A DNA stretch of 64,000 nt from an uncultured Eubacteriales bacterium (GTDB taxonomy: Bacteria > Acidobacteriota > Aminicenantia > Aminicenantales > Aminicenantaceae): assembly GCA_964449165.1 (NCBI GenBank), contig CAYVAT010000013.1:407-64406 (forward strand), written 5' to 3'. Made by a program: the position numbers and the translations under genes. The first letter of the stretch is position 1. Every line of letters begins with the position of its first letter. Shown piece after piece: positions 6,230 through 22,252 of this stretch. A model generated the notes under the pieces. It did no database searches and was not told the origin of the DNA. It saw only the letters and a list, made by a program, of their open reading frames with translations.

Positions 6230-6264
6230 AGATCGATATAGGAAAATAAAAGGAGGAAGGAATA

Positions 6265-6606: not shown

Positions 6607-7026
6607 ATGAGCGAGGAATTTGAGCCGCGTATAGTTGCTTTTTTATGCAACTGGTGTTCGTATGCCGGTGCGGATGTGGCGGGTTCGAGCAAACTAGAGA
6701 TGCCGCCTACCATAACACCCGTGAAGGTAATGTGTTCGAGCCGGGTTGATCCGGTAATGGTGATCACAGCTTTTCTGCGCGGGGCCGACGGTGTGCTGAT
6801 TGCCGGATGTCATCCGGGAGATTGTCACTACGACAAAGGCAATTATTACGCGCGCAGGCGATTTGCGGTTTTAAGAGAAATTTTCAATACGCTTAGACTT
6901 GAAGGGGAGCGGTTGAGGCTTTCCTGGGTCTCCGCGTCGGAAGGACCGCGATACGCAGAGGTAGTGCGGGAGTTTTCCGAAAAGATCAAGCAGTTGGGCC
7001 CGAACCCTGTAAAACAGAAGACATAA
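6607..7026 (+). CDS. MvhD-like protein, second paralog
   Basis: MSEEFEPRIVAFLCNWCSYAGADVAG...VMCSSRVDP...GCHPGDCHY. The ORF-track start is GTG 6565; ATG 6607 with AAGGAAG upstream matches paralog N-termini better. Confidence 0.7.
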   Translation: MSEEFEPRIVAFLCNWCSYAGADVAGSSKLEMPPTITPVKVMCSSRVDPVMVITAFLRGADGVLIAGCHPGDCHYDKGNYYARRRFAVLREIFNTLRLEGERLRLSWVSASEGPRYAEVVREFSEKIKQLGPNPVKQKT

Positions 7027-7053
7027 AACACCTTCAGGTGCTGGAGAAAGACT

Positions 7054-8340
7054 ATGACTAAAAAACAGCAAGAGGCCAAGGATCAGGTTCTTGTGATCGG
7101 TGCGGGAATGGCCGGGATCGAGGCCAGCCTTACACTGGCCTCTGCCGACAAGAAGGTCTACCTCGTGGAGAAGGAACCGCTGTTCGGCGGAAAGGTTATC
7201 AAGTTCGAAGAAGTCTTTGCCAACATGGAATGCTCCACATGTATGGCAGCGCCGAAACAGCAAGAAGTGCTTCAGAATGAGAAGATCGAGTTGCTTACGC
7301 TCAGCAAGGTAAAAGAAGTTAAAGGAGAAGCGGGTAATTTTACTGTAAAGATTGAAAAAAAGGCAAGATACGTGAGCCTCGAGGACTGCATAGGCTGTAA
7401 CGAGTGTTTTGAACCCTGCCCGGTAAGTCTGCCCAATGAGTTCGAGGAGAACCTGGGTGAGAGAAAGGCTATATATATCCCCTGTCCCGGCGCGCTACCG
7501 AATGCCCCGTCGATAGATACAGATAATTGCGTGAGATTCACGAAGGGAGAAGATTGCCAGTTGTGCAAGGAAGCCTGCATGTTTGAGGCAATCGATTTCG
7601 ACCAGAAAGATGAAGAAGTGGAACTCAATGTTGGGGCCATAATTGTAGCTACAGGATTTGACCTTATGGATTCCGAGCAGATTTCTGACTGGGGTTACAA
7701 TGGCGAAGCGAACGTGTATACCGCACTTGAGATGGAAAGGTTGTATGCGTCGAACGGGCCAACTGCGGGAAAAATCATTTTAAGAAACAATAAAGAACCG
7801 GCATCCGCGGCAATGATTCACTGTGTGGGACGCGAAAAAGCGGGTTACTGTTCTGGCGTATGCTGTATGTACAGTTTCAAGTTTATTCATTACTTGAAAG
7901 ACAAACTGCCGGAAATAAAACTGTATGATGTCTACAGCGACTTTTGTATGCCAGGCAAGAGCTATCAGCCATTTTTCGAGCATTTGAAAGATAAAACAGA
8001 GTCGGTTCGGTTCCAAGATCTGAAAATCGTGCATCAGAACGGTAAAGTACGGATCAAATATAAATCCTTGGCAGGCAAGGAGGAAAAACTGGATGTAGAT
8101 ATGGTGATTCTTGCACCCGCTATCGTGCCCGCCAAGGGGGCATCGGAATTGGCCAAGAAACTGGGCATTGAACAAACTGAGAGCGGATTTTTTGGTTTTC
8201 AATCGAGTGACCGTTCACCGGAGGAGAGCGGCCGTGAGGGGATTTATCTTGCGGGGTGTGTTCTCGGGCCCGAAGACATTGGCAGAGCAATTGCCCAGGC
8301 CGAGGCAGCGGCAGGGAAAGTACTTGCATTGCTTAGTTGA
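7054..8340 (+). CDS. HdrA-like flavoprotein, central module: FAD domain with inserted 2x[4Fe-4S] ferredoxin, lacking the HdrA N- and C-terminal domains
   Basis: VLVIGAGMAGIEASL, FEEVFANMECSTCM, CIGCNECFEPCP, CQLCKEAC, IHCVGREKAGYCSGVCCMY. It is collinear with residues ~140-560 of the canonical HdrA at 15747-17669. Confidence 0.75.
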   Translation: MTKKQQEAKDQVLVIGAGMAGIEASLTLASADKKVYLVEKEPLFGGKVIKFEEVFANMECSTCMAAPKQQEVLQNEKIELLTLSKVKEVKGEAGNFTVKIEKKARYVSLEDCIGCNECFEPCPVSLPNEFEENLGERKAIYIPCPGALPNAPSIDTDNCVRFTKGEDCQLCKEACMFEAIDFDQKDEEVELNVGAIIVATGFDLMDSEQISDWGYNGEANVYTALEMERLYASNGPTAGKIILRNNKEPASAAMIHCVGREKAGYCSGVCCMYSFKFIHYLKDKLPEIKLYDVYSDFCMPGKSYQPFFEHLKDKTESVRFQDLKIVHQNGKVRIKYKSLAGKEEKLDVDMVILAPAIVPAKGASELAKKLGIEQTESGFFGFQSSDRSPEESGREGIYLAGCVLGPEDIGRAIAQAEAAAGKVLALLS

Positions 8341-8355
8341 GCGAAGAGGAGTGTA

Positions 8356-10038
8356 ATGGAGAAGAAGAGCGTAATGGATAGGAAAATCGGCGTTTATGTT
8401 TGTGAATGCGGGCCGAACATAGCAGATGCTCTGGATATAGACAGGGTTATCGAAGCTGTGTCGGGCATGGAGAATGTCGCTGTTATCGATAGGTATAAAC
8501 TCCTGTGCTCCCCGGACGGGAAGAAATACCTTGCCGAGCAGATAAAAGAACATGGGCTGACACACTTGGTGGTTGGAGCGTGTTCCCCAAAACAGCATGA
8601 AGCGACTTTTATGGGCGTATGTAAAGAAGGTGGGATGAATCCTTTCCTGATGCAGATGGCCAATCTTCGAGAGCAGATCGCATGGATAACTCCAGACAAA
8701 GAAAAAGCTACCGAACGGGCGATCAGGCACATGAAAGCGGCTGTTCGACGTGTCCGGTATCACGCGCCGTTGGAACAAAAAGAAATTGAATGTAATGCAG
8801 ATGTGCTGGTCATAGGTGGAGGTATAGCGGGAATGTCGGCAGCCCTGCTGCTGAGCAGTCCGGACCGAAAAGTGTTTCTAGTCGAAAAGAATACAGAACT
8901 CGGAGGAATGGTTTCAAGATACGAGAAGCTCTTTCCGGATATGATCAGAGGCAGTGAGATTACGGAAAGGCGCGTCAAGAGCTTGAAAGAAGACGATAAT
9001 ATCGAGGTGCTAACAGGTACAAAAGTGGAGAAAATCCTCGGCTTTTTCGGAAACTTTGTAGTTACTGTCCGCGAAGGAGAATCCGAACCTCGAGAGTTTA
9101 AAGTGGGAGCTGTTGTAGTGGCCACAGGTGCAGACCTTTTCGATCCCGGTACCCTGGAGGAATACGCGTACGGGAAGATAAAAAATGTTGTTACTGCCCC
9201 CGAGGTTGAAGAAATGAATCTGAAAGGAAACATTAAGCTCGAAAACGGAAAAGAACCGAAAAGTGTTGGGATTATTCATTGCGTTGGTCGGAAAGAGAAA
9301 GGGTACTGCTCAGAGGTGTGCTGCAGAGCGGGGATGAAGATATCGCGCTATCTGAAAGAAAAGATTCCGGCCGTTTCAATAAAGCATTTTTATCAGGATC
9401 TCTGTGTTCCGGGCTCTGGAGCGCAGGCGTTCTACGAGGAGACCCGGGATGCGGGGGCGGAGTTTGTCTGCACAGATACAGTTAAACTGAAGGAGTCCGA
9501 TAAAAATATCAAAATAGATCACGACGGTAAAGTTGATACAGTAGACATGGCGGTCCTTCTGCCCGCAATAGAACCGGCAGAAGACACTTCTGATATTTCC
9601 GAAATGCTCGGTGTTGAAAAGGGAAAGGGAGGATTTCTTACGGAAGAACACGAGAAGATAAGCCCGGTCACTACAACCGTCGAAGGAGTATGCCTGGCCG
9701 GGTCTGTTTCAGGACCAAAAACCGTACGTGACGCCGTGTCCCAGTCAGAAGCTGCAGCGGGGAAGATACTTTCCTCATTGGTGCCGGGTCGAAAACTGGA
9801 AACAGAAGCCAAGACTTCGAAAATATTCGAGAATTTGTGTACGGGCTGTAGAACTTGTCTGACGGTATGCTGTTACAGCGCAATCGAGTATGATGAATCG
9901 AGAGGAGTTTGTGTGGTTAATGAGGTGCTCTGCAAGGGATGCGGGAATTGCGCAGCAGCTTGCCCCTCTGGAGCGGCAATGCATCAGCAATTTACACCAA
10001 AACAAATCTACAGGGAAGTGATAGAGATATTGCGATGA
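8356..10038 (+). CDS. HdrA-like flavoprotein with N-terminal Cys domain and C-terminal 2x[4Fe-4S], but no inserted ferredoxin domain
   Basis: IGVYVCECGPNI...LLCSPDG...VGACSPKQ; VLVIGGGIAGMSAAL; IHCVGRKEKGYCSEVCC; C-terminal CTGCRTCLTVCC and CKGCGNCAAACPSG. RBS GAGGAG lies upstream. Confidence 0.75.
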   Translation: MEKKSVMDRKIGVYVCECGPNIADALDIDRVIEAVSGMENVAVIDRYKLLCSPDGKKYLAEQIKEHGLTHLVVGACSPKQHEATFMGVCKEGGMNPFLMQMANLREQIAWITPDKEKATERAIRHMKAAVRRVRYHAPLEQKEIECNADVLVIGGGIAGMSAALLLSSPDRKVFLVEKNTELGGMVSRYEKLFPDMIRGSEITERRVKSLKEDDNIEVLTGTKVEKILGFFGNFVVTVREGESEPREFKVGAVVVATGADLFDPGTLEEYAYGKIKNVVTAPEVEEMNLKGNIKLENGKEPKSVGIIHCVGRKEKGYCSEVCCRAGMKISRYLKEKIPAVSIKHFYQDLCVPGSGAQAFYEETRDAGAEFVCTDTVKLKESDKNIKIDHDGKVDTVDMAVLLPAIEPAEDTSDISEMLGVEKGKGGFLTEEHEKISPVTTTVEGVCLAGSVSGPKTVRDAVSQSEAAAGKILSSLVPGRKLETEAKTSKIFENLCTGCRTCLTVCCYSAIEYDESRGVCVVNEVLCKGCGNCAAACPSGAAMHQQFTPKQIYREVIEILR

Positions 10039-11117
10039 AAGAAGGGCATGTAATCAAAGCAGCTGAAGGGACGAGTAAAGCTATAGCCGGGCTTTTAAAG
10101 AGCTCGCTGGAGAAGAAAATCTTTGAGGCTGTGCTTGTGCCAATACGCACAAACGAAGGATATAACTACGTTTTGACGGATAACGCCGACCTTCTGGAAA
10201 GGGCCGAGATAATGCCCCCGGTGATGTCTGTTCAAGGGGGCAAGGTGTTGCAGGCTCTGACTCGGCACGGGAAAAGCAGGAAAATCGCCGCCGTAATGCG
10301 GATGTGCGAAATACGGGCTGCTGTAGAGCTTTCCAAGTTGGAGCAGACGGATTTGGAGAACGTTTTCTTTATCAGTGTGGATTGTAATGGCGTAACACCT
10401 CTCTCCGATTACCTGGAAGATCCGTCCAGCGCCGGCACGAAGCTCCGGCCACTTTGCGAAATCTGTACGTCATTCAGTGTTGTTGGAGATAAACAGGCCC
10501 AGGATGTTGATATACACGCTGCAACCATGGGTGTAGATGAAGGAGAAGTGTTGTTTATTCCCATGAGCGATGACGGTGAAAGTGTGCTGGAGAAACTGGC
10601 CATTGATAAGAAAAAAGACGCCGGGAAATGGGTAAAGGAAACAGAGAAGTTGCAGAAGCAGCGTATAGCCGCCAGGGAAAAAGCTCTGAAAGAAACAAAG
10701 GAAATGGTAAAAGGACTGAACGGTTTGCTGGAGGTGTTCAGCCGGTGCATAGAATGTCACAACTGCCGCAGTGTATGCCCGATATGCTATTGTCGGCTCT
10801 GCTTTTCTGATAAGGATACTTTCCGGGAAACAGGCGCGGAATATCTTGATCGTGTGCAGGCCCAAGGGGTGATGAAGTGTACAGATGACCTTCTGCAGTT
10901 CCATTTGGGCCGGATGTCGCACATGAGCTTATCGTGCGTGTCCTGCGGAATGTGTGAAGATGTGTGCCCGGTGGACATACCGGTTGGACAAGTATTCAGC
11001 GCCGTAGCCGAGAAAACTCAGGCGATATTTGACTATTTTGCGGGTAAAAGTTCTGATGAGGAACAGCCGCTCAGGACATTCGAGCTGGGTGAATTGGTTG
11101 AAGTAGAGGACAAATGA
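10035..11117 (+). CDS. FrhB/FdhB/FpoF-family protein (coenzyme F420 hydrogenase/dehydrogenase beta-subunit-like flavo-Fe-S protein), paralog 1
   Basis: RMCEIRAAVEL corresponds to the FrhB motif GTPCQIQAVR. C-terminal CIECHNCRSVCPICYC and CVSCGMCEDVCP. The start ATG at 10035 overlaps the previous stop (ATGA); the ORF-track Met at 9939 lies inside the upstream gene. Confidence 0.65.
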   Translation: MKEGHVIKAAEGTSKAIAGLLKSSLEKKIFEAVLVPIRTNEGYNYVLTDNADLLERAEIMPPVMSVQGGKVLQALTRHGKSRKIAAVMRMCEIRAAVELSKLEQTDLENVFFISVDCNGVTPLSDYLEDPSSAGTKLRPLCEICTSFSVVGDKQAQDVDIHAATMGVDEGEVLFIPMSDDGESVLEKLAIDKKKDAGKWVKETEKLQKQRIAAREKALKETKEMVKGLNGLLEVFSRCIECHNCRSVCPICYCRLCFSDKDTFRETGAEYLDRVQAQGVMKCTDDLLQFHLGRMSHMSLSCVSCGMCEDVCPVDIPVGQVFSAVAEKTQAIFDYFAGKSSDEEQPLRTFELGELVEVEDK

Positions 11118-11155
11118 ATGGTCTGTGACCGGCCGCGCATGCTTGGAGACTTGAA

Positions 11156-12265
11156 ATGACTAAGATGTTGAAAATAGATAAAGCGATTTCAGACGGGACC
11201 AGAGATTTTCTGCGCTATCTTCTGGACAGCAAGAACGTGCGTAGTGTGGCAGTGCTGAGGAGAGATAGGACGTCTGGCTGGGTCAGCTACAGCCTGATCT
11301 CTGATCCGGAAAAGATAGAGGAAGCGGTCCCTTTTTCTCCGGTCATGCCATACAACGCGGGTGAGTATCTCTCTCGCCTCACATCCAAGGGACCGTTCGA
11401 TAAGCCTGTTGCGGTGGTATTGCGTCCATGCGAACAGCGAGCGTTTGTGGAGCTTGTAAAACGACAGCAGGGCAGTTTGGACAATATCATAACAATCAGT
11501 TCGGTTTGTCCGGGAGTTTATCCTTTGAAAACATTTGTTCGTGAGAACGAGGACAAGCTGTTTAAGGATTACTGGTCGGTGGTAGCTGATGGAAAACAAC
11601 CTGAGGGGATCCGGGACACGTGTTCGTTCTGTGAGCATTTTGTTCCGGCTGAAGCCGACATTGTCATACCCATAGCAGGCGAGAAGGATACGGGCAAAGA
11701 ATGCAAATTGTTCGCGAATACCGAAAAGGGAGCTGAACTACTGAAGGGGATAGATGGGAAAATACAGGAATCTGAACTGGAGACAAAAGGAACCGAAGCT
11801 ATCCGGCAGTTGCGGAAGGAAAACGAAGAAAAGATGCTGGCCGATCTGGGGAAAAAGTTATCGGGATTAGATGGGCTGGTAGAAATGTTCAGTACGTGCA
11901 TTGGCTGTCATGGATGTCGGTCGGTTTGCCCGATTTGTTACTGCCGCTTATGTGAATTTGATTCTTCTCGAAGTGAATACGAGGCACGAAAATATGAAAT
12001 CGAACTGCGCAAGAAGGGGGGCGTAAGAATACCCCCGGGCTCCATAGCCTTTCAGATAGGTCGGATGATCCATATAGGCCTTTCCTGTGTGAGCTGCGGG
12101 ATGTGTAGCGACGTGTGTCCCGCCGATATCCCGGTTGCAAATATTTTCAGGAAAGCGGGAAAGGCGGTCCAGGATGTGTTCGAATACATTCCTGGAAAGG
12201 ACCTTGAGGATAGTATCCCTGTCACGACATTTGAAGAAGAGGAATTGAGAAGTGTTGAGGATTAA
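11156..12265 (+). CDS. FrhB/FdhB/FpoF-family protein, paralog 2
   Basis: RPCEQRAFVELVK; CIGCHGCRSVCPICYCRLC; CVSCGMCSDVCPADIP. It aligns with paralog 1 throughout. Confidence 0.65.
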   Translation: MTKMLKIDKAISDGTRDFLRYLLDSKNVRSVAVLRRDRTSGWVSYSLISDPEKIEEAVPFSPVMPYNAGEYLSRLTSKGPFDKPVAVVLRPCEQRAFVELVKRQQGSLDNIITISSVCPGVYPLKTFVRENEDKLFKDYWSVVADGKQPEGIRDTCSFCEHFVPAEADIVIPIAGEKDTGKECKLFANTEKGAELLKGIDGKIQESELETKGTEAIRQLRKENEEKMLADLGKKLSGLDGLVEMFSTCIGCHGCRSVCPICYCRLCEFDSSRSEYEARKYEIELRKKGGVRIPPGSIAFQIGRMIHIGLSCVSCGMCSDVCPADIPVANIFRKAGKAVQDVFEYIPGKDLEDSIPVTTFEEEELRSVED

Positions 12266-12729
12266 GAGGGTGGTGAATCAGATTTTATTATCTTTGTTAT
12301 TTCATCTACAATTCCCGGAATTTTACTTTTTACCCCAGGAGTACATTCCTCGCCAAACGTAGTATTATCTTCTATTTCTATTGCATAAATTTCAATAATT
12401 TGAGGTATTTTATATCCCAGCTTCCTTCCGAGTTCAATTGCAGTTCTAATATTCACTCCATGTGAGTATGATGGAGTTGAAAAAGTGCCTATATCTTCCA
12501 GGTTTAGTTTGTAAAGGGTGCCAGGTGTTTCTTTTTCTGTTTTTATGGAGTCGATGATGATAAGTCTCTCGTATTCACCAATATAGTCAAGCAGTGAAAT
12601 TCCCGCCAGACTTGTTTTTATCACTTCAATATCAGGAAGGGAAAGTTTCTCTATCTCATTTGCCACACAGATGCCTACCGAATCATCTGTCAGAATTGGG
12701 TTTCCAACTCCCAATATAAGAGTTTCCAT
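12262..12729 (-). CDS. [NiFe] hydrogenase maturation endopeptidase (HycI/HybD/FrhD family)
   Basis: ILGVGNPILTDDSVGICVANEI...IIIDS is typical of hydrogenase C-terminal processing proteases. It sits directly downstream of the large subunit. Confidence 0.8.
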   Translation of the reverse strand: METLILGVGNPILTDDSVGICVANEIEKLSLPDIEVIKTSLAGISLLDYIGEYERLIIIDSIKTEKETPGTLYKLNLEDIGTFSTPSYSHGVNIRTAIELGRKLGYKIPQIIEIYAIEIEDNTTFGEECTPGVKSKIPGIVDEITKIIKSDSPPS

Positions 12730-12786
12730 TTTTGAAGACGGGAAATATCAATCCACAGTAATGAGCGTGAAGAGATCGAAATATTT

Positions 12787-14250
12787 TTACGACCTTCTGA
12801 TAGTGTCTATTATATTCGCTTTATGATCTCTAATGTTGACTTCGAGAGGCATATGCCCGGGCAGTGAATGAGTAGCACAGGCAAGGCAAGGGTCATATGC
12901 ACGGAATGCCATTTCTACCATGTTAAGTAATCCCTCAGATACCTTTCCCTCCTTTATGAGCCCTTTTGCCGCTTTCTCTATTGACATACATATCGAAGCA
13001 GCATTGTTAACTGTAGCAACAATTAAATTGACGTCTGTAAGAACACCTTTATCGTCTGTCTTGTAATGATGATAGAGAGTACCTCTTGGTGCTTCTACTA
13101 CGCCAATCCCTTCATCAGGAACAGCGGTTGGGATACTTCTAACATCGGGGTCGAGAATTTCCTCGTCCTGGGCTAACTCCAAAAGCCTTTCAGCTGCATA
13201 GAGAAGCTCCACTAGCCTTGCCCAATGATAGGCAAGAGTGTTGTGTGCTGGCTTACCACCCAAGATATTATACATTTTTTCATATTCTACTTGAGCCAGT
13301 GGCGTTGCCATACCATCGGACGCATTGAGTCTTGCAAGAGGAGCTACTCGATAAACTCCGCTGTCCTTTCCATCAACGAATCCCTTCCAGCCGACACCTT
13401 TAAGATATGGAAATTTTATGTAGCTCCACGGCTCAACATGCTCCTCAATATGATTCAGATACTCCCGAGACTTAAACTTGGCAAACTCCTTACCTTCAGG
13501 GTCAACTACTCTAATATCTCCGTCATAAAAATTGACTTTATTGTTCTCATCAACAAGTCCCATATAATATGTTTTGTGTTTGTAAATATCTCCCACAATG
13601 ACATCTACATACTCTTTGTTTTTGAGAACAATGTCTTCAAAAGCTTTCAAAGCGAATTTGGCAAATTCTATCGCATCTTTCCCTATTTGGATATATTCTT
13701 CTCTATCTTCTTTGGTAACCCCCTTGGATACACCCCCAGGAAGATTACATACGGGGTGAATAACCCTGCCTCCCTGCTTTGTAATGATGTTGCGCAGCCG
13801 CTTTCTGATATCTATAACCTTCTTGCCCGCGTCAAGACCAACTTTCTGAATGACTCCCAAAATATTCCTCTCTCCTGCGGGTGCCTGTGGTCCAACAACA
13901 AAATCAGGTCCCCCAAGGAAGAAGAAGTGGAGAGTATGGTCTTCAGCCATGAAAGCAGAATTAATAAGCTCTCTTATCTTCTTGGCCGGTGACGGAGGGG
14001 TTACATGGAACAAATCATCAAGCGCCTTGCCAGATGCCATATGATGGGTAGTGGGACATACGCCACATATCTTGGGAGTGATTCTCGGCATTTCCTCTGC
14101 CATGCGTCCTTCAGAAAATTTCTCAAATCCCCTCAGCTCAGGAACTTGAAAAAAAGCCTTCTCCACATTTCCCTCGTTATTAAGAAATATTTCTATCTTC
14201 CCATGACCTTCAAGCCTTGTTATTGGGTCTATCGTTATTCTTTTTGCCAT
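12787..14250 (-). CDS. mvhA: [NiFe] hydrogenase large subunit, Mvh/group-3c-like
   Basis: N-terminal RLEGHGKIEI and PKICGVCPTTHH; C-terminal DPCLACATHSLPGH (the Ni-Fe ligating CxxC pair); RBS AGGGAGA. Confidence 0.85.
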   Translation of the reverse strand: MAKRITIDPITRLEGHGKIEIFLNNEGNVEKAFFQVPELRGFEKFSEGRMAEEMPRITPKICGVCPTTHHMASGKALDDLFHVTPPSPAKKIRELINSAFMAEDHTLHFFFLGGPDFVVGPQAPAGERNILGVIQKVGLDAGKKVIDIRKRLRNIITKQGGRVIHPVCNLPGGVSKGVTKEDREEYIQIGKDAIEFAKFALKAFEDIVLKNKEYVDVIVGDIYKHKTYYMGLVDENNKVNFYDGDIRVVDPEGKEFAKFKSREYLNHIEEHVEPWSYIKFPYLKGVGWKGFVDGKDSGVYRVAPLARLNASDGMATPLAQVEYEKMYNILGGKPAHNTLAYHWARLVELLYAAERLLELAQDEEILDPDVRSIPTAVPDEGIGVVEAPRGTLYHHYKTDDKGVLTDVNLIVATVNNAASICMSIEKAAKGLIKEGKVSEGLLNMVEMAFRAYDPCLACATHSLPGHMPLEVNIRDHKANIIDTIRRS

Positions 14251-14329
14251 TTTATCTCCCTTTTCCTCAAAGTGATGTAAATTGTCTTATAAACTTAACA
14301 AACAATAAAAAATTGCTCCAAGCATTCAT

Positions 14330-15310
14330 CTATGCCATTCTCTTCCTTTTTAACAGCGAAGAAGGCAAACTATACATATAGAAAAGACCTGCCGGATCTA
14401 CTATCTGGTCGATTAACTTCTTCGTGTCTTCCTCTGTCATCTTCTCTTCTTCTTCCACGCCTATTATGGATGCAATTGCTGATAATCCTTTTGCCCCCTG
14501 GTCTACTACTTCCTTTGTCGGTCCAAAACATCCGCGACACGGCATATTTGCATTTATGCATCTCTCACCACAGCCGCTCCTGGTTACAGGGCCTAAGCAG
14601 ATAAGCCCTTCTTCTAAAAAACACTTCTCAGGGTCTGGTATTATCTCGTAGGGTCTCTTTATTTCCTTTATTGAGAGTTTATCCGGTTTTGTCTCTCCAC
14701 GTGGGCAAGTTTCACACAAGGATTTATCAGGTGCGAGAACTGCTCCCTTTTCGGGAAGCTTACCTTCCAATATAGCTGTTACCGCATTCATAATTAAATC
14801 TGGTGGCGGTGCACATCCAGGAAGATAATAATCAACATCGATTGTCTGGTCCAGTGTCTTGACTGTATCATAGAACTCAGGAAGCGTAAGCTCACCCTCA
14901 GGAATATTTGTTTTTTGTTGTGGCACTATCCCATTGGGGTTTGCTATAGAGGGTACTGTCTTGTAAACCCTCGTGAAAATTGTTTCCCTATTCCAAAAAT
15001 TTGCAAGCCCTGGTATTCCACCTAAATGAGAACAGGACCCAAACGCGACTACAAGCCCAGATTTCTTTCTCAATAGTTTCACCATCTCTTCCTGTTCTTC
15101 TGTTCTAATAGCACCGTTTATGAAACTCACTGCTATTTCTCCATCGCCCATCGCCTCCACATCCTTTTTCTTAAAGTCCAGTGCGACTGGCCAGAACGCT
15201 ATATCCACTGCCTCCACTACTTTTAATATATCCTCATTAAGGTCGACAATAGCTTCCTCACATCCACCACATGAAGCGCACCAATAAAATGCTACTTTTG
15301 GTTTAGCCAT
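14330..15310 (-). CDS. mvhG: [NiFe] hydrogenase small subunit, Mvh/group-3c-like
   Basis: VAFYWCASCGGCEE at the N-terminus (proximal cluster), with further Cys motifs. RBS AGGAGG. Positioned between mvhD and mvhA. Confidence 0.8.
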   Translation of the reverse strand: MAKPKVAFYWCASCGGCEEAIVDLNEDILKVVEAVDIAFWPVALDFKKKDVEAMGDGEIAVSFINGAIRTEEQEEMVKLLRKKSGLVVAFGSCSHLGGIPGLANFWNRETIFTRVYKTVPSIANPNGIVPQQKTNIPEGELTLPEFYDTVKTLDQTIDVDYYLPGCAPPPDLIMNAVTAILEGKLPEKGAVLAPDKSLCETCPRGETKPDKLSIKEIKRPYEIIPDPEKCFLEEGLICLGPVTRSGCGERCINANMPCRGCFGPTKEVVDQGAKGLSAIASIIGVEEEEKMTEEDTKKLIDQIVDPAGLFYMYSLPSSLLKRKRMA

Positions 15311-15348
15311 AATTGCCTCCTTCTAAAATAGACATCATTTCTACTTAT

Positions 15349-15750
15349 TTAGGATAATTCTAGGGGACCTAAATTTTTTACAGTTTCTGCCATTTCATTT
15401 GCTACTTTTGCAAATCTCTCTCCTTCGCCTGCTGCAACCCAGTCCAATCTAACTCTTTCTTCTTCAATCCCCAGCTGCTTCAGGGTATTCTTCAAAAGAT
15501 GTGCTCTCCGAAGTGCCTTATAGTTTCCTGTTTTGTAATGGCAGTCCCCGGGATGGCATCCTAAAATTAACACTCCGCTTGCGCCCTCTTTTAATGCTTG
15601 TATCACAAGCTCTGGATCTACACGACCGCTGCACATAACCCGAACGATTCTTACATTCGCAGGATAATTCAATCGTGCGCCCCCAGCCTTATCTGCTCCT
15701 TCGTATGAACACCAATTACATAGAAAACTAACGATTGTTGGCTCATTCAT
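15349..15750 (-). CDS. mvhD: MvhD ([2Fe-2S] subunit linking hydrogenase and HdrA)
   Basis: TIVSFLCNWCSYEGADKAG...RVMCSGRVDP...GCHPGDCHY; RBS AAGGGGG; 4-nt overlap with the hdrA stop. Confidence 0.8.
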   Translation of the reverse strand: MNEPTIVSFLCNWCSYEGADKAGGARLNYPANVRIVRVMCSGRVDPELVIQALKEGASGVLILGCHPGDCHYKTGNYKALRRAHLLKNTLKQLGIEEERVRLDWVAAGEGERFAKVANEMAETVKNLGPLELS

Positions 15751-17669
15751 CTTACTACCCCCTTAATTTCAGCAAATATTTGCTCCTTTGTGAAGTGCTT
15801 TGCTCTCGCTGCACCCGACGGACAGGCTGATACACAAGTTCCACACCCTCTACAAAGAGTCTCATCTACAACTGCAATCTTTTTTTCTACATCCCGAGAT
15901 ATGGCAGAGTATGGACATAGAACAATACATACGTTACAGCCACTGCATAAATCTTCACTTATCTCTGATACCTTTGCTTCTAACTCAAGTTTTTCACCAG
16001 GTATAAGTCTTGAAAGTATTCTTCCTGCAGCGGCTCCTCCTTGAGCCACTGCATCTCCAATATCCTTTGGTCCCTGACAGCTCCCTACTGCAAAAACGCC
16101 TTCAAGTGCTGTAGCAAAAGGCTTCATCAATGTGTGCTCCTCAGCAAAAAAGCCCTGGTCATCTCTGGCTATATCAAGGAGTTCGGCTATTTTTTCAGTA
16201 TCTTCGTTAGGCTCAACTGCAGGTGCAAGTACTACCATATCTACGGATATCTCTTTTCCATTTGTTCCCACTTTTATTTTTTCTCCTTCATCAGTAACAG
16301 TCACATCCTCTCCACTTCTTATAAACTCTATACCTTTCTCCACAGCCTTCTTATGCATCATTTGATGTTCTTTCTTCGGAAGACATAGGTCAGTATAGAA
16401 GTGATGCATCTTTACCGCGGGCAATTTTTCTTTCATAAGATGGGCCAAGGTGAGTGAATACATACAGCATATGCCTGAGCAATAGCCCTTCTCTTTCCTG
16501 CCAACACAGTGAATGAAAGCTATGGATTTTGGCTCCTTCCCGTTCTTTAATTGAATCTTCCCTCCTGTTGGTCCATTTGAGGCATTCAACCTCTCTAATT
16601 GCATGGCTGTTAATACATTGTCATATTTTCCATATCCATATTGAGGAAGTTCTTTGGGATCAAAAAGTGCAGAGCCCGTAGCTAAAATAATTGCACCTAC
16701 GTTCTTCTCAATTGTCTTGTCCTCGTCATCATAATTAATGGCGTCAAAGGAACAACTTTCTTTGCAGATGCTGCATTCCTCTCCCTTGAATCTCTTGCAG
16801 TTATTCTTATCTATGACAGGCACATTAGGAAGACCACCAGCGAACGGAATATATATTGCTTTCCGGGATGACAATCCCTCATCATATTCATTGGGCACTT
16901 CCACAGGACACGGCTCAAAACATGCATCACATCCAATGCAGGCTTCTTCGTTTACGTATCGGGCTTTCTTCTTAACCTTGACAGTGAAATTCCCAAACGA
17001 CCCAACAACTTCCTCTAGCTCGCTATAAGTGAATGCTTCTATATTCTCTTTTTGAAGGACTTCTTGCAGTTCAGGTGCTATCATGCAAGGTGCACACTCC
17101 AAAGTTGGGTAAACTTCTTCAAATCTTGCTGTAAGCCCACCAATACAGGGGCTCTTTTCCACGAGATAGACCTTCCTGCCCTTCTGTGCGAGTGATAGAC
17201 ATGCCTCTAATCCAGCTACCCCTCCCCCTACTACTAGAACATCAGGCTGAATATCAATTTCCTTTTTCTCTATAGGTTCTTGTAAAGAAGTCCTGTTTAT
17301 TGCAGCTATAACAAGACTTTTTGCTTTTTCAGTTGCAGCAGATTTTTCAGCGGTAACCCAGGCACACTGCTCCCTTATGTTCGTCATCTGCATAAGATAA
17401 GGATTCAGCCCTGCTTCCTCACAAGCCCTCATAAATTTAATCTCGTACTGCTTTGGAGTGCAGGCAGCAATCACAACTCTTGAAAGCTTCTCATTCTTTA
17501 TTTCTTCTTTGAGAAATTTTAGCCCTTCTACTGAACACAGGAGATTATGACTCTTTGCCACTGCTACATCCTCGATGCCCTTTACTTCATTGGCAATAGC
17601 ATCTACATCTACCTTGTCTCCTATGTTTGGTCCACATTTACACACATATACGCCTATCTTTTCAGCCAT
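15747..17669 (-). CDS. hdrA: Heterodisulfide-reductase subunit A-like flavoprotein, canonical full-length HdrA architecture
   Basis: IGVYVCKCGPNIG, VLVVGGGVAGLEACL, inserted ferredoxin CIGCDACFEPCP/CSICKESC, IHCVGRKEKGYCSGICCMY, C-terminal CSGCNVCIVLCP/CRGCGTCVSACPSG; RBS AAGGAGG. Confidence 0.85.
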   Translation of the reverse strand: MAEKIGVYVCKCGPNIGDKVDVDAIANEVKGIEDVAVAKSHNLLCSVEGLKFLKEEIKNEKLSRVVIAACTPKQYEIKFMRACEEAGLNPYLMQMTNIREQCAWVTAEKSAATEKAKSLVIAAINRTSLQEPIEKKEIDIQPDVLVVGGGVAGLEACLSLAQKGRKVYLVEKSPCIGGLTARFEEVYPTLECAPCMIAPELQEVLQKENIEAFTYSELEEVVGSFGNFTVKVKKKARYVNEEACIGCDACFEPCPVEVPNEYDEGLSSRKAIYIPFAGGLPNVPVIDKNNCKRFKGEECSICKESCSFDAINYDDEDKTIEKNVGAIILATGSALFDPKELPQYGYGKYDNVLTAMQLERLNASNGPTGGKIQLKNGKEPKSIAFIHCVGRKEKGYCSGICCMYSLTLAHLMKEKLPAVKMHHFYTDLCLPKKEHQMMHKKAVEKGIEFIRSGEDVTVTDEGEKIKVGTNGKEISVDMVVLAPAVEPNEDTEKIAELLDIARDDQGFFAEEHTLMKPFATALEGVFAVGSCQGPKDIGDAVAQGGAAAGRILSRLIPGEKLELEAKVSEISEDLCSGCNVCIVLCPYSAISRDVEKKIAVVDETLCRGCGTCVSACPSGAARAKHFTKEQIFAEIKGVVR

Positions 17670-17733
17670 CGTTCCTCCTTATTATTTGAATTTTGACACT
17701 CCTCAATTGCGGCCATCTTCTGTATTTAATTAT

Positions 17734-17755
17734 CTTGATAATTAGATATATCAAG
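17734..17755. promoter_or_regulatory. Inverted repeat CTTGATA-N8-TATCAAG between the ArsR-family gene and hdrA; candidate operator
   Basis: A perfect 7-nt inverted repeat, read directly, about 65-85 nt upstream of the hdrA start codon and immediately downstream of the ArsR-family gene. Confidence 0.4.
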
Positions 17756-17763
17756 GGGAATAA

Positions 17764-18042
17764 TTATCTTTTTAATATTTGTAAGATTTTAACAACACGC
17801 TTATCAATAACTTTATAACATACTTCTACTCCCTTTTTGCTTCCATCAATTATACCTCTGTTCCTTAATATCTGAAGGTGCTGAGAAATTGTAGGTTGAG
17901 GAATGCCTAATATTTTCTGTATTGAACTAACGCTACATCCTTCATTGTGGAGTCCTAATAATAGCAGCTCTATTATTTGCAGACGTACAGGGTGAGCGAA
18001 TGCTTTCAAGAGCTCACTTTCATCCTTGTATTTATATTGCAT
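17764..18042 (-). CDS. ArsR/SmtB-family transcriptional regulator
   Basis: 92 aa; HPVRLQIIELLL...SVSSIQKILGIPQPTISQHLQILRNRGII is a winged-helix ArsR signature. Confidence 0.8.
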   Translation of the reverse strand: MQYKYKDESELLKAFAHPVRLQIIELLLLGLHNEGCSVSSIQKILGIPQPTISQHLQILRNRGIIDGSKKGVEVCYKVIDKRVVKILQILKR

Positions 18043-18350
18043 TTGTGGAAAGAACCATTATTTGACAGAGTATAATAACATAGTGAAACTTCTGCGTCTT
18101 ATATGCATCATTTCTTTTAACCGCATATTTAAATATATAAATAATGCAGTGTCAAGGGAAAAAATAATACATATGGGATTGTGTTATTTGTGAATCTAAA
18201 AAAGAGGTCCAGGATATGATGCGGAAATTCAAAAATGCTGGCTTTGAAGAAGAATTTATGAACCTAATGTTATATATCCCGTTTCTTAAAAAACAGGGGT
18301 AATACTTCCTCGGAAGTAAAAATCTTTACTAAAGAATTTGTTATTATATA

Positions 18351-19895
18351 ATGGTATCAGATGGAGAAATTGGTTTGAGACAGGAAGATAAAGTAACAAA
18401 AGAATTCTTAGAAAATATCTTAGAGAGCATGGAAGGGGGAGTGCTTACTGTAGACAAAAATGGCAGGATCACCTCGTTTAACCGTTCTGCTGAGGAAATT
18501 ACTGGTTTCAAGAGAGAGGAAGTACTGAATAAGGAATGTTGTCATATTCTTAAGACCGATCTCTGTGAAGAATTATGTCCTTTAGAAGAGATCTTAAAAG
18601 TTGGAAAGACAGTCCACAATTATGAGATTATGATTGCCAGCAAAGATGGGAATAAGGTTCCTGTAAACATAACGACTTCAGCATTACGATCCAGCAATAA
18701 TGAGATAATTGGCGCTATAGAAAACTTCAGGGATTTGACCAAACATAAAGGATTATGGGGGAAGCTGCGCCAGGAAAGAAACAAAGCACAGCAGTACCTC
18801 AACATTGCGGGAGTTATAATCATTGCTATTAATGACAAGGGAATAGTCACCCTTATCAACAAGAAGGGGTGCGATGTCTTGGGTTACAGAGAAGAAGAGA
18901 TCATCGGTAAAAACTGGTTTGATTTATGTGTTCCTGAAGCAGAGAAAAAAGAAAGAGAGGATACTTTTAAAAAAGTGATGGCAGGAAAAATACAGGAAGC
19001 TGAAGACTACGAAAACTCAATTCTGGCTAGATCTAGTGAGGAAAGGATTATCGCATGGCACAATACGACACTCACAGATGAAAAAGGTCATATCGTTGGC
19101 ACTCTTAGCTCAGGAGAAGACATCACCAAGCGCAAACAAACAGAGGAAGAATTGATCAGATCTGAAAAACTAGTCTCTTTAGGTCAGCTAGCTGCCAGCG
19201 TTGCTCACGAAGTGAATAATCCATTGGCCGGTATTATGGTTTATATCAAGCTTCTTATCAAGAAGTATAAAGAAAAGAAACTGCAGACAGGAAAAACTGA
19301 AGAGCAGCTTTTGAAAATGGAAAAAGAACTGGATAGGACTACCCGAATAATCAGAAATCTTCTCGATTTCGCCCGCCAATCAGAACCGGCCATAAGACCA
19401 GTCGAAATAAATAAAGTAGTAGAAGCCGCTTTGTTATTAGTCGGACATCAAATCAGCCTTGAAAACATAAAGCTCGAGAAGGAATTAGATACTGAGCTTC
19501 CTCTTGTTCTTGCGGACTTTGATAAAATCCAACAGGTATTGATAAACATCATCATGAACGCGATTCAGGCGATGCCTGAGGGGGGCAACTTGACAGTCTC
19601 TACATCGGTTGCTAAAAACGTTAAAATCAATCAGTTTCTCAAAGATACTGTTAGGATTGAAATCAAGGATACAGGAGTGGGAATTCCCAAAGAAAACTTA
19701 AGCAAACTTTTTACGCCTTTCTTCACTACTAAAGAAAAAGGCAAAGGTGTGGGGCTAGGACTCCCTGTTGTTCATGGAATTATTGAGCAGCATAAGGGAA
19801 AGATAGAAGTAGAAAGTGAACCCAACATAGGTACAGCATTCACGATATATCTGGAGGTAATGAATGAGGAAAAAGACAAAAATACTCGTAGTTGA
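18351..19895 (+). CDS. Cytoplasmic PAS-domain sensor histidine kinase
   Basis: Two PAS-like segments, then the H-box SVAHEVNNPLAGI and an HATPase region with N/G boxes (NAIQAM, DTGVGIP, GKGVGLGL). No TM segment. The Cys cluster ECCHILKTDLCEELCP lies in the first PAS. Confidence 0.8.
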   Translation: MVSDGEIGLRQEDKVTKEFLENILESMEGGVLTVDKNGRITSFNRSAEEITGFKREEVLNKECCHILKTDLCEELCPLEEILKVGKTVHNYEIMIASKDGNKVPVNITTSALRSSNNEIIGAIENFRDLTKHKGLWGKLRQERNKAQQYLNIAGVIIIAINDKGIVTLINKKGCDVLGYREEEIIGKNWFDLCVPEAEKKEREDTFKKVMAGKIQEAEDYENSILARSSEERIIAWHNTTLTDEKGHIVGTLSSGEDITKRKQTEEELIRSEKLVSLGQLAASVAHEVNNPLAGIMVYIKLLIKKYKEKKLQTGKTEEQLLKMEKELDRTTRIIRNLLDFARQSEPAIRPVEINKVVEAALLLVGHQISLENIKLEKELDTELPLVLADFDKIQQVLINIIMNAIQAMPEGGNLTVSTSVAKNVKINQFLKDTVRIEIKDTGVGIPKENLSKLFTPFFTTKEKGKGVGLGLPVVHGIIEQHKGKIEVESEPNIGTAFTIYLEVMNEEKDKNTRS

Positions 19896-21231
19896 TGATG
19901 AAGATATAGTAAGAGAATCACTCCGCGATTGGCTGAGCAGTGTTGGCTATAAAGTGGAAATTGCCTCCTCTGGAGAGGAAGCCCTCCGGATAATCAAACA
20001 GAAAAAGATCAAAATTATGCTTGCTGACCTCATCATGCCGGGCATGGACGGTATCGAACTGATGAAAAAGGCAAGAGAAATAGTTCCAACACTCTCAACG
20101 GTCATTATAACAGCCCATGGAACGATTCAAACAGCGATAACCGCGATCAGAGAAGGCGCTCATGATTACGTAGAGAAGCCGTTCTGCCCGGAAAAGGTCG
20201 AACTTATCATAAAGAATCTGGTGGAACATCAGGATCTGGTTGAGGAAAATATATCTCTTCGGCGGAAGATTGAAGCAAGATTCCACTTTGAGGGCATCAT
20301 CGCAAAGAGCCCCAAGATGTTGAAGATAATTGAACTTATTAAAACAGTAGCGCCGACTAATGCCACCATACTGATTATTGGGAGAACCGGAACGGGCAAG
20401 GAAGTCATTGCACGGACTATTCATCATCAAAGTCCGCGTCGAAGCAAACCTTTCATCGCCACAAGTTGCGCATCCCTTCCGGAAAGTCTGCTGGAAAGTG
20501 AACTTTTCGGCCACGAAAAGGGCTCTTTTACAGGGGCAATAGGAAGAAAAAAAGGCAAGTTTGAAGCTGCAGACAGAGGCACTTTATTCCTTGATGAAAT
20601 AGGCGAGATAAATCCCAACACCCAGATCCATCTCCTAAGAGCACTTGAGGAGAAGAAAATTACCAGAGTGGGTTGTAATGAAGAAATTGGTGTTGATGTA
20701 CGTATCATTGCTGCCACAAATAGAGATTTGAAAACTATGGTTGAGCAGGAGAAATTCAGAGAGGATCTGTATTACCGGTTGAATGTGGTAACTATAGACC
20801 TCCCTCCGCTTAAGGATAGGATGGAGGATATTCTACCGCTGGCAGAGCATTTTTTGAAGAAGTATGCTCAAGAAAATAATAAAAGCATCAAAAAATTTTC
20901 TCCTGAAATAGTAGAATTTATGCTGAATTATTCATGGCCTGGTAATGTTAGAGAGTTAGAGAACATGATCGAACGCGGTGTGATTATATCGAAGAATACG
21001 ACAATCACTCTGGGCGAACTTCCACATGAAATTATTCACCCAGCTCCTAAAGAAGGAAAAACCATCGAGGCGGTCGAGAGAAATCACATCATTAGTGTGC
21101 TCGAAGAGACAAAAGGCAATGTTTCAAAGGCAGCTAAGATACTCGGTATTCGGCGGACGACCCTTTATAACAAGCTGAAAAAATATAATTATACTGTCCA
21201 TAAATTAGACACGAATTGTCCAATTAATTAA
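19864..21231 (+). CDS. Sigma-54-dependent response regulator (NtrC family: receiver, AAA+, HTH)
   Basis: KILVVDDEDIV receiver; Walker A GRTGTGKEV; ESELFGHEKGSFTGA (GAFTGA motif); C-terminal HTH AAKILGIRRTTLYNKLKK. Confidence 0.85.
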   Translation: MRKKTKILVVDDEDIVRESLRDWLSSVGYKVEIASSGEEALRIIKQKKIKIMLADLIMPGMDGIELMKKAREIVPTLSTVIITAHGTIQTAITAIREGAHDYVEKPFCPEKVELIIKNLVEHQDLVEENISLRRKIEARFHFEGIIAKSPKMLKIIELIKTVAPTNATILIIGRTGTGKEVIARTIHHQSPRRSKPFIATSCASLPESLLESELFGHEKGSFTGAIGRKKGKFEAADRGTLFLDEIGEINPNTQIHLLRALEEKKITRVGCNEEIGVDVRIIAATNRDLKTMVEQEKFREDLYYRLNVVTIDLPPLKDRMEDILPLAEHFLKKYAQENNKSIKKFSPEIVEFMLNYSWPGNVRELENMIERGVIISKNTTITLGELPHEIIHPAPKEGKTIEAVERNHIISVLEETKGNVSKAAKILGIRRTTLYNKLKKYNYTVHKLDTNCPIN

Positions 21232-21341: not shown

Positions 21342-21357
21342 TGGCACGCTGCTTGCA
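21342..21357 (+). promoter_or_regulatory. Sigma-54 (-24/-12) promoter
   Basis: TGGCACGCTGCTTGCA is an exact match to TGGCAC-N5-TTGCA, about 100 nt upstream of the receiver gene at 21458 and downstream of the NtrC-type activator. Confidence 0.7.
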
Positions 21358-21457: not shown

Positions 21458-22252
21458 ATGAAAAAAGAAACTATGTTGGTTGTAGAAGATGAGGATATTA
21501 TGCGGGAGGCATTATCCGATTACTTCTCTGACGGGGGCCATAAAGTTGATACCGCCAATAATGGGGATAACGCATTGGAAAAATTTAATTTAGAAGATTA
21601 CAACGTCATGATAGTCGATCTTAAATTACCCGGGCGTGATGGGCTTTCCGTGCTGAAGGAGATTAGAGCGAAGAATCCGAAGGCAAAAGTTATTATCATC
21701 ACGGCTTATCCCTCGATTGATACTGCAAAAGAGGCTATACGTGGTGGTGCGCTTGACTACTTACCAAAACCTTTTGAGCTGGACTATCTTGAAACCATAA
21801 TCAACCGATCTTACGAAGTTGAAATAGTACCTACACCGCCTGTTGAAGAACCAATAGTTGAAGAGAAAATTGTAACTCCATGCATCTGGATGCAAGCTGG
21901 CTTAGTAAAAAAACGGATGTGTACGCTCGGTTATCAATGCAATAATGCGTGTAAGTTTCATGCAGCAATGATGAAAAAAGAGGAATTCAGGAATGATCCA
22001 AGGATTAAACCTTTTCTTGACAAACTTAACTCTCAAATAGGAAGGAAGCAGTGCAGATATACTATGAGTGGAGAAATTGCTCTGCGATCCTGCGATAGGC
22101 TTTACCGCTGCGAGAGCTGCGAATTTCACCAGACAATCGAGGATGAGGTAGACCGCCAACTTGCCATTAAGGCCGCAAATCAAAAAAGGAAGCAGGCCAA
22201 AATGTATGGCCGGGTGGCAACGATGCATAGTCCATCCCGAAGTGACCACTAA
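21458..22252 (+). CDS. Response-regulator receiver protein with a C-terminal cysteine-rich domain of unknown function
   Basis: CheY-like receiver (LVVEDEDIM...DLKLPGRDG...YLPKPF). The ~130 C-terminal residues carry about 10 Cys (CIWMQ...CTLGYQCNNACKFH...CRYT...SCDRLYRCESCEFH) and no recognizable DNA-binding motif. Confidence 0.65.
   Translation: MKKETMLVVEDEDIMREALSDYFSDGGHKVDTANNGDNALEKFNLEDYNVMIVDLKLPGRDGLSVLKEIRAKNPKAKVIIITAYPSIDTAKEAIRGGALDYLPKPFELDYLETIINRSYEVEIVPTPPVEEPIVEEKIVTPCIWMQAGLVKKRMCTLGYQCNNACKFHAAMMKKEEFRNDPRIKPFLDKLNSQIGRKQCRYTMSGEIALRSCDRLYRCESCEFHQTIEDEVDRQLAIKAANQKRKQAKMYGRVATMHSPSRSDH

Follow-up and report, generated by a model that had tools for sequence, protein, structure and literature searches.

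A bacterial group 3c hydrogenase-HdrA operon and the candidate ATAT-array operators of its ArsR-family regulator

The operon and its described relatives

The closest described relative of the enzyme considered here is MvhADG-HdrABC of hydrogenotrophic methanogens, a group 3c [NiFe] hydrogenase complex (PDB 5ODC). Group 3c hydrogenases accompanied by HdrA and lacking HdrBC are widespread in uncultured anaerobic bacteria, where their role has been called unresolved, and Mvh-HdrA clusters of this group have already been reported in Aminicenantes and other uncultured phyla (PMC6472368). Here, we analyzed such a cluster, arsR-hdrA-mvhD-mvhG-mvhA-protease, in 64,000 nucleotides (nt) of contig CAYVAT010000013.1 (assembly GCA_964449165.1) from an uncultured member of the Aminicenantaceae, a stretch referred to below as the window. 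Its first gene encodes a small ArsR-family regulator, and the candidate operators of this regulator are arrays in which ATAT tetramers recur every 8 bp, with the strongest array upstream of arsR.

Among the described regulators is the ArsR-family protein Rv0081 of Mycobacterium tuberculosis, whose gene stands first in a hydrogenase (formate hydrogenlyase, FHL) operon; the protein represses this operon via an inverted repeat situated upstream of that gene (bioRxiv 10.1101/465575). The window regulator resembles Rv0081 (PDB 6JMI) in being a small ArsR-family protein without metal sites (sequence match E = 3.7e-7, fold template modeling (TM) score 0.82), but Rv0081 has no cysteines, the FHL hydrogenase belongs to group 4, and no relation between the operator sequences is known. 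The repressors SqrR, BigR, SoxR, and sHdrR control sulfur genes (rhodanese, TusA, DsrE, Hdr-like) and carry a two-cysteine switch in alpha-2 and alpha-5 (Cys50/Cys116 in sHdrR; PMC12423496). With these sulfane-sulfur repressors, the window regulator shares the fold, the family, and the similar neighborhoods of its homologues. The closest solved sequence relative was PagR of Bacillus anthracis (PDB 2ZKZ, E = 9e-12), which has a minimal ArsR fold of about 99 amino acids (aa) and no metal sites, but has non-Cys residues aligned to Cys36 and Cys75 of the window regulator and regulates toxin and S-layer genes. Nothing usable was found in the literature on TsoR and on BigR operators. SurR of Pyrococcus furiosus, likened here by description only, is an archaeal winged-helix protein of about 230 aa whose CxxC cysteine redox switch couples the expression of a membrane-bound hydrogenase to sulfur availability, with GTTn3AAC as its site.

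The translated open reading frames (ORFs) were checked against Pfam, NCBIfam, and solved structures (Table 1). The initial annotation had described a complete mvhA-mvhG-mvhD-hdrA set with a maturation protease and an upstream ArsR gene, and all six minus-strand genes were recovered. The gene order hdrA-mvhD-mvhG-mvhA places MvhD and MvhG beside HdrA, as is typical of group 3c, with a 4-nt overlap between the hdrA stop and the mvhD start. HdrA had been called full length, and residues 4-640 do align nearly end to end with residues 5-651 of the 654-residue methanogen HdrA (5odc_A, E = 1.6e-166); its architecture (N-terminal cluster domain, FAD/thioredoxin-reductase-like domain, and inserted and C-terminal ferredoxin domains) is complete, with Pyr_redox_2 and three Fer4 stretches in Pfam, and the NCBIfam HdrA2/HdrA models match at 1.7e-202 with scores under their cut-offs. 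MvhA carries the nickel-binding motifs ICGVCPTTHH and DPCLACATH of a group 3c large subunit; its top solved relative was MvhA 5odc_F (E = 4.7e-120), and its top NCBIfam model was VhuA (1.8e-120), with a score of 402, below the equivalog cut-off of 800. MvhG matched the VhuG model at 4.6e-64, again with a score under the cut-off.

No CCG-domain-like protein, and hence no HdrB, was found among the window's ORFs of 120 aa or more, which bears out the earlier remark that this HdrA lacks HdrB; the neighboring FeS proteins carry only HdrC-like 2x[4Fe-4S] and FrhB_FdhB_C domains (Pfam). Compared with methanogen MvhADG-HdrABC, the locus has the same HdrA, MvhA, MvhD, MvhG, and maturation endopeptidase, but a bacterial host, no HdrB/HdrC partner in the operon, and NCBIfam equivalog scores that are all below the cut-offs. 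The enzyme itself belongs to the known group 3c Mvh-HdrA type, in a bacterial form. The protease gene and the last plus-strand gene overlap at their stops by 4 nt (12262-12265), as the initial annotation had stated; it had also read the overlap as a physical joining of two redox arrays, but the overlap establishes only convergent transcription and is no evidence of a functional join.

The regulator and its conserved linkage

The AlphaFold2 model of the regulator (predicted local distance difference test score, 90) has the secondary structure H-H-H-H-E-E-H and the ArsR/SmtB topology of the family, with Foldseek TM scores of 0.75-0.85 to SmtB, YgaV, PagR, CadC, BigR, SqrR, and Rv0081. None of the canonical metal sites is present: NEGCSVS, the sequence of the alpha-3 box, keeps a single Cys, and alpha-5 (DKRVVKILQILKR) has no ligand residues. 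Metal control of the hydrogenase, which had been suggested together with redox control, is thus unlikely. The cysteine positions of BigR, SqrR, and sHdrR are not Cys either, the equivalent of BigR Cys42 being Glu25 and the other position lying beyond the C-terminus (the protein ends at residue 92), and the NCBIfam BigR model scored 50.6 against a cut-off of 155. Since the lineage lacks the SqrR/BigR/sHdrR cysteine positions, it should not be filed with that clade.

Among 120 homologues, Cys36 was present in 119 and Cys75 in 105, the combinations being Cys36 + Cys75 (104), Cys22 + Cys36 (10), and all three (1). Cys36 is situated in the loop that leads into alpha-3 (N-cap), Cys75 in the middle of the beta-2 wing strand, and Cys22 in alpha-2; in the canonical winged-helix topology, the loop before alpha-3 pairs with the last wing strand. 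A constant Cys36 with near-exclusive alternative partners is the pattern expected of a two-cysteine switch, and a thiol or sulfur switch would fit the regulator better than metal control. Both cysteine variants occur upstream of fusions of the CoA-disulfide-reductase (CoADR)-rhodanese type.

The window proteins were mapped onto 165 fetched loci (L001 onward). Exact or near-exact ArsR copies were found on metagenome contigs, and homologues of 66-91% identity came from metagenome-assembled genomes (MAGs) of Aminicenantes (Acidobacteriota-related). In dozens of Aminicenantes loci, hdrA-mvhDGA comes after an arsR gene (66-100% identity), and two such gene orders occur. Type A consists of arsR, a spacer, hdrA-mvhD-mvhG-mvhA, and the protease gene where the contig reaches it (window, L001, and L008; L017, L086-L095, and L097 begin in the same way). 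In type B (for example, L013, L015, L016, L018-L022, and L099-L107), arsR abuts a 30%-identical protease paralogue, which is followed by hdrA-mvhDGA, with HdrA ~47% and MvhA ~71% identical to those of the window. A further arrangement, type C, comprises arsR (78-80% identity), the same spacer array, ~9 hdrA codons, GTTATACAGTGCTnTTATAAA, a porin-like gene, and a YeeE/YedE 'Sulf_transp' transporter gene (for example, L009, 6279-9113; L011, 1101-3942/L098; L096; L104; and L108). Judged from these gene orders, the linkage of the regulator to hdrA-mvh is strongly conserved, and the cassette is modular.

In type C, the hydrogenase cargo is swapped and the regulatory cassette kept, and L011 continues directly with a type-B arsR-protease-hdrA operon. 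A type-B operon (5775-12050, HdrA 47% identical) occupies the genomic slot of the window's type-A operon in L016, with divergent kinase/regulator genes upstream, an 86%-identical FrhB/HdrC-like gene converging downstream, and the arsR-proximal ATAT box kept, which suggests an in-situ replacement of the hydrogenase module.

The genes directly downstream of more distant homologues encode pyridine-nucleotide-disulfide oxidoreductase domains (12 of 52), rhodanese (10), DsrE_2 (8), TusA (7), and thioredoxin (5) according to Pfam; individual cases include CoADR/rhodanese fusions with or without TusA and DsrE domains, as well as thioredoxin. The association with sulfur-transfer and persulfide genes that marks the SqrR/BigR clade is thus found with these homologues too (CoADR-rhodanese, thioredoxin, TusA, YeeE). 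The regulator may work like the SqrR/BigR/SoxR/sHdrR clade; membership is not shown by such neighborhoods. HdrA-like genes also occur beside more distant homologues: a Spirochaetales MAG (L024, 5959-9680) has arsR (53% identity, Cys36 + Cys75) followed by two of them, and a Chloroflexia MAG (L078, 6001-11982) has arsR (38% identity), a gene for a TusA-domain protein, and then HdrA-like genes.

Candidate operators at the arsR promoter and in the arsR-hdrA spacer

The recognition helix PQxTISQHL (P48 Q49 x T51 x S53 Q54 H55 L56) is nearly invariant from Aminicenantes to Firmicutes homologues, and the upstream regions of distant homologues were therefore examined for a shared motif. The motif ATAT-N4-ATAT occurred at 4.69 per kb within 200 nt upstream of arsR homologues vs 0.04 per kb elsewhere in the loci, an enrichment of about 117-fold that spans many phyla. 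In total, 132 sites were observed, compared with 5.8 +/- 2.4 in first-order Markov-resampled upstream regions, and 74 of the 141 distinct loci contained the motif. Of 55 intervals between neighboring sites, 43 measured 8 nt, and the arrays thus amount to ATAT tetramers in 8-bp phase, as in ATATTCGAATATgctAATATAATAATATgttAATATAAT upstream of a distant homologue (L159).

The strongest operator candidate in the window lies upstream of arsR and not between arsR and hdrA. There, a box composed of a T-tract, a -35 element, and the spacer and -10 region (Table 1) is present in every Aminicenantes locus with enough upstream sequence (about 45), with the consensus TTTTTTyCTTGACATTGywTTATTyATATATwTAAATA and a distance to the ATG of 42-198 nt. 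The T-tract, CTTGA-A, and TATATTT-AATA columns were invariant in an 18-sequence alignment, and the window copy was the sole match to the promoter pattern in 64 kb. Within it, ATATTTAAATAT is an exact ATAT-N4-ATAT instance, one of four exact sites in the window (two of the other three fall in a coding (AT)n run), and the top position weight matrix match of the window outside that run. The three phased tetramers of the promoter (TTAT + ATATTTAAATAT) scored 11/12 (P = 0.015), and type-B arsR promoters reached phased scores of 18/20 (P < 0.0005). The unit after the -35 element (ACATTGyTTTrTTTATrTATTTAAAT) is tandemly duplicated in L087 (2860-2925) and L088 (2862-2925), adding ~26 nt before the leader.

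The ~80-nt arsR leader (18043-18124 in the window) is conserved at the nucleotide level in type-A, type-C, and some type-B loci (AAAAATGATGCATATAAGACGCA...TATTATTATATTCTG...) and had no Rfam match; a conserved upstream peptide was rejected because its frame is broken in L008, so that the conservation is of nucleotides only. The only other exact ATAT-N4-ATAT site of the window outside a repeat, ATATAATCATAT (27985-27996), is intergenic and lies upstream of two outer-membrane beta-barrel genes (28055-28702 and 28735-29358).

A second array occupies the arsR-hdrA spacer. It has 13 of 16 tetramer matches (P = 0.0095, dinucleotide shuffles), other periods giving at most 11, and the spacers of relatives hold five phased tetramers scoring 16-18/20 (P <= 0.007); phasing at 8 bp was significant in all six tested spacers at some array length. 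The conserved bases (T/C)TrATATATCTAATTAT stand at a fixed offset of 12-14 nt after the arsR stop, and the 8-nt difference in spacer length between the window and L007/L008 is exactly one repeat period. The array is retained, with the ~9-codon hdrA remnant, where porin-yeeE replaced hdrA-mvh, and the box ATATCTAATTAT was not found elsewhere in the window.

The spacer also has a promoter-like layout, read by eye from the window, L008, L090, L009, and L016 among others. By consensus resemblance only, TTGATA (17749-17754) is -35-like, as is TTGACA at the head of the arsR promoter, and a -10-like hexamer lies 19 nt downstream in all lineages compared by eye (TTAAAT in the window, 17724-17729; TATAAT in L008, L007, L090, and L094; TATGAT in L009); the promoter scan returned promoter-like sites at chance rate only. 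The terminator scan found no terminator-like site in the spacer, which makes co-transcription of arsR and hdrA plausible and, in type B, almost unavoidable. A direct likeness of the spacer box to the promoter spacer (shared ATTATT) was discarded as too weak to use in AT-rich DNA. Pairing of UUCCCCUUG with the hdrA ribosome binding site (RBS), seen in the minimum free energy (MFE) structure, was ruled out as an anti-Shine-Dalgarno device because the C-run is missing in relatives. The Rfam E-value scan of 12000-18500 gave just two chance-level small nucleolar RNA matches.

The initial annotation had singled out another element of this spacer as a testable operator, the inverted repeat CTTGATA-N8-TATCAAG, which begins 9 nt past the arsR stop and is placed 64 nt upstream of the hdrA ATG. 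The repeat is present and perfect, but it is not distinguished from chance. With perfect arms of >=7 nt required and loops of 0-20 nt allowed, an equally good inverted repeat appeared in 16% of dinucleotide-preserving shuffles of the 94-nt spacer (32% GC) and in 26% of similarly AT-rich 94-nt tiles of the window. The longest perfect repeat of the spacer is another one, TAATTATC-aa-GATAATTA (17727-17744, P about 0.05), which extends into the 12-2-12 dyad with one mismatch.

The pairs of the palindrome are kept at 7/7 in same-species contigs only, at 6/7 in L094, at 5/7 in L090 and L007/L091, and at 3-4/7 in L008, L009, L010, L012, L016, L011, L017, and L096; a compensatory G:C to A:T change at arm position 4 was seen in L007/L091 and L094 (5-6/7 pairs). 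The segment is replaced by an insertion in L006/L086/L097 and L087, split in L088/L089, and absent from type-B operons, where arsR abuts the next gene. The insertions are members of a family of repeats bounded by terminal inverted repeats, and hdrA is intact as far as the contigs reach. By these comparisons of sequence, the 7-8-7 palindrome is no conserved unit, and the conserved signal between arsR and hdrA is its 'spacer' plus the inner arms, as part of the 8-bp-phased ATAT array. Because ATAT is self-complementary, such arrays yield many inverted repeats, CTTGATA-N8-TATCAAG included.

A ~260-bp repeat element with imperfect terminal inverted repeats (CTGGATTATTCA...TGAATAATTCAGG) was also found between mvhG and mvhA in L001 (3758-4056); it is absent from the window at 14251-14329, though the Hdr/Mvh proteins of L001 are 96-99% identical. 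Copies or shorter derivatives of it stand in the arsR-hdrA spacers of L087 (3392-3596), L088 (3300-3471), and L006 (791-1047), one of them splitting the conserved box, and the element looks like an active one of the miniature inverted-repeat transposable element (MITE) type. The inserted element contains a perfect inverted repeat of 11 nt (CAGCAATATCA...TGATATTGCTG) around an 11-nt loop, which is inverted between contigs (GGAAGTTATCT vs AAATAACTTCC) while the flanks keep the same orientation (L086, 3310-3345, vs L087, 3310-3348, and L097, 1199-1239).

Table 1. Coordinates of the operon genes, candidate regulatory elements, and convergent genes in the window
Feature	Position	Strand	Basis or remark
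Convergent redox array	123-12265	+	Last gene 11156-12265; array end 4 nt inside protease gene
dsrE, in convergent array	5873-6229	+	Pfam DsrE/DrsE_2
tusA, in convergent array	6265-6486	+	Pfam TusA
Hydrogenase maturation endopeptidase	12262-12729	-	Pfam HycI; TIGR00072 96.4 (cut-off 47.45)
mvhA, [NiFe] large subunit, C-terminal extension beyond DPCLACATH	12787-14250	-	Pfam, NCBIfam, 5odc_F
mvhG, [NiFe] hydrogenase small subunit	14330-15310	-	Pfam Oxidored_q6 2e-22
mvhD/FlpD, [2Fe-2S] adaptor subunit	15349-15750	-	Pfam FlpD 5e-55
hdrA, full-length HdrA flavoprotein, 640 aa	15747-17669	-	Pfam, NCBIfam, alignment to 5odc_A
hdrA RBS AGGAGG	17674-17679	-	
8-bp-phased array ATAT-ctaa-TTAT-caag-ATAA-ttaa-ATAC	17722-17749	-	Phasing score
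Near-perfect 12-2-12 dyad TATCTAATTATC/GATAATTAAATA	17723-17748	-	Repeat search
Perfect palindrome CTTGATA-tatctaat-TATCAAG	17734-17755	.	Read in sequence
Conserved box ATATCTAATTAT within spacer array	17738-17749	-	
arsR, ArsR/SmtB-family winged-helix regulator, 92 aa	17764-18042	-	Pfam HTH_5 3e-11; NCBIfam NF033788 75.1 (cut-off 55)
Perfect 12-mer palindrome ATATTTAAATAT in arsR promoter	18125-18136	-	
TTAT-N4-ATAT-N4-ATAT in spacer and -10 region of arsR promoter	18125-18144	-	
Conserved arsR promoter/operator box (candidate): T-tract, -35, spacer and -10 region	18125-18165	-	Conservation, motif
-35 TTGACA of arsR promoter	18150-18155	-	

Explanations of control and neighboring genes

The explanation that we favor, and to which we give about an even chance, is that of an autoregulated arsR-hdrA-mvhD-mvhG-mvhA-protease operon with ATAT-array operators and a thiol or sulfane-sulfur switch; binding, repression, signal, transcription starts, and acceptor are what we infer in it. 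The small non-metal ArsR-family protein, as product of the first gene, would most likely be the repressor of its own operon. It would recognize ATAT tetramers every 8 bp, overlapping into ATAT-N4-ATAT palindromes, with its primary operator in the spacer/-10 region of the arsR promoter (18125-18144) and a secondary, weaker array (17722-17749) covering the sigma-70-like element between arsR and hdrA. CTTGATA-N8-TATCAAG would be a by-product of the first two tetramers of this second array and the -35-like TTGATA. The switch would operate by chemistry on Cys36 together with Cys75 (a disulfide, persulfide, or sulfur bridge) in response to an effector that is probably thiol-reactive and possibly sulfane sulfur. 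Expression of the hydrogenase-HdrA module would then track the supply of a sulfur or thiol compound, and the H2-driven HdrA module would feed a sulfur-based acceptor and not the heterodisulfide of coenzymes M and B (CoM-S-S-CoB). Such a mechanism would support the remark in the initial annotation about a non-heterodisulfide acceptor and would point it toward sulfur on TusA/DsrE.

Several observations weigh against this explanation. All of the elements are AT-rich, and ATAT-like words are common in such DNA; the motif counts come from related loci and are hence non-independent. Tetramers in the spacer match at 3/4, and of the 10 specified positions of ATATTnnAATAT, only 6 agree with the central 12-mer TTATCAAGATAA. 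The array in the spacer is dispensable, being replaced or split in the loci with insertions listed above and absent from type B. Half-sites repeating every 8 bp are unusual for ArsR dimers, which classically have operators of the 12-2-12 form. Many homologues of <45% identity have the ATAT motif but no cysteines, which makes the DNA motif and the sensing chemistry separable. Finally, actual control could lie with the PAS kinase and NtrC-type regulator encoded next to the operon.

Three features appear to be new: the placement of the cysteines, the candidate operator of ATAT tetramers in 8-bp phase, and the association of such a regulator with HdrA-Mvh or porin-YeeE. We suggest, tentatively and with more doubt than confidence, that they may define an undescribed class of thiol or sulfane-sulfur sensors in which Cys36 is paired with Cys75 or Cys22, which would read 8-bp ATAT arrays and place HdrA-MvhADG or porin-YeeE under the control of sulfur compounds. 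If this is true, the acceptor of bacterial group 3c hydrogenase-HdrA modules would be a sulfur species, which the TusA/DsrE and Hdr-like proteins encoded nearby would handle. A regulator conserved beside the module offers a concrete handle on the module's purpose, the neighbors of its relatives being genes for the handling of persulfide and thiosulfate. Should all of this prove wrong, what remains is a hydrogenase operon of the ordinary kind, with a correct annotation.

Two other explanations place the control at the same DNA differently. The regulator might act at the arsR promoter only, with a single transcript and with the spacer box, unbound by the regulator, as either a neutral remnant or a promoter (TTGATA-N19-TTAAAT) that is internal or vestigial, a possibility that we consider rather doubtful. 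The arsR promoter is indeed the sole invariant element, the next gene directly adjoins arsR in type B, the spacer shows plasticity and accepts insertions, no terminator-like site separates the genes, and the window spacer resembles the arsR promoter (CTTGAYA...TTAAATA). However, this view sits poorly with a box held at a fixed offset past the arsR stop in many lineages, including those with swapped cargo, with 8-bp phasing in 6/6 tested spacers, and with spacer lengths that vary by one-period steps. It is unlikely that the exact 7-8-7 palindrome is itself an ArsR operator gating a separate hdrA promoter in response to redox or metal signals. Its perfection and its place between the regulator gene and hdrA speak for this idea, as do the -35-like TTGATA in its left arm, the compensatory change at arm position 4 in L007/L091 and L094, and the inner TRATA...TATYA pairs, which are often kept. 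Yet its chance level is 0.16-0.26, its outer arms are unconserved, and its most conserved bases are those of the 'spacer'; the element is deleted or split where hdrA is intact as far as the contigs reach and is absent in type B, the canonical metal sites are absent, and the family-wide motif stands in a different register.

That the palindrome acts instead as an RNA hairpin in the arsR-hdrA co-transcript (a processing site, a stabilizer, or an attenuator of hdrA translation) is very improbable. The isolated 33-nt segment does fold into a 7-bp hairpin of -7.1 kcal/mol (z = -4.2), but this hairpin is not used in the full-spacer MFE structure (z = -0.24), the AU-rich stem is followed by no U-tract, its pairs are lost in relatives, and neither a terminator call nor an Rfam match was obtained; a terminator or attenuator role was rejected on the same fold and terminator scan. 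Equally remote is main control by the divergent PAS histidine kinase and sigma-54 activator, with a minor or unrelated ArsR. Their genes stand head-to-head with arsR in the window, L004-L006, L016, L086, L087, and L097, but many arsR-hdrA loci have no kinase nearby, and sigma-54 control of arsR or hdrA was dismissed when a scan for TGGCAC-N5-TTGCW upstream of both genes gave no match at <=2 mismatches. The one perfect sigma-54 site (21342-21357) precedes another gene, that of the next response regulator.

The convergent plus-strand array encodes two MvhD proteins, DsrE, TusA, three HdrA-like proteins (including one of 428 aa and one of 560 aa), an HdrL-like protein of 1096 aa that is a Fer2-HdrA-like fusion, a NuoF/GltD-like protein of 620 aa, and two paralogous FrhB_FdhB_C + HdrC-like proteins that are 35% identical to each other. 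No HdrB was found in this array (123-12265).

Upstream of arsR, the divergent histidine kinase gene (18351-19895, plus strand) encodes a first PAS domain with a cysteine-rich stretch (ECCHILKTDLCEELCP) that could bind a cofactor or metal cluster. The sigma-54 site mentioned above is a perfect consensus (TGGCACGCTGCTTGCA, plus strand) that comes directly after the NtrC-type activator gene (19864-21231) and ~100 nt upstream of the response-regulator gene (21458-22252). Farther on, a four-gene cluster on the minus strand (22456-25968) comprises an [FeFe]-hydrogenase-like gene (24086-25462; Fe_hyd_lg_C and 'Putative Fe-S cluster' domains), a PHP-domain gene, and two HATPase-type genes, and resembles putative H2-sensing regulatory hydrogenase clusters.

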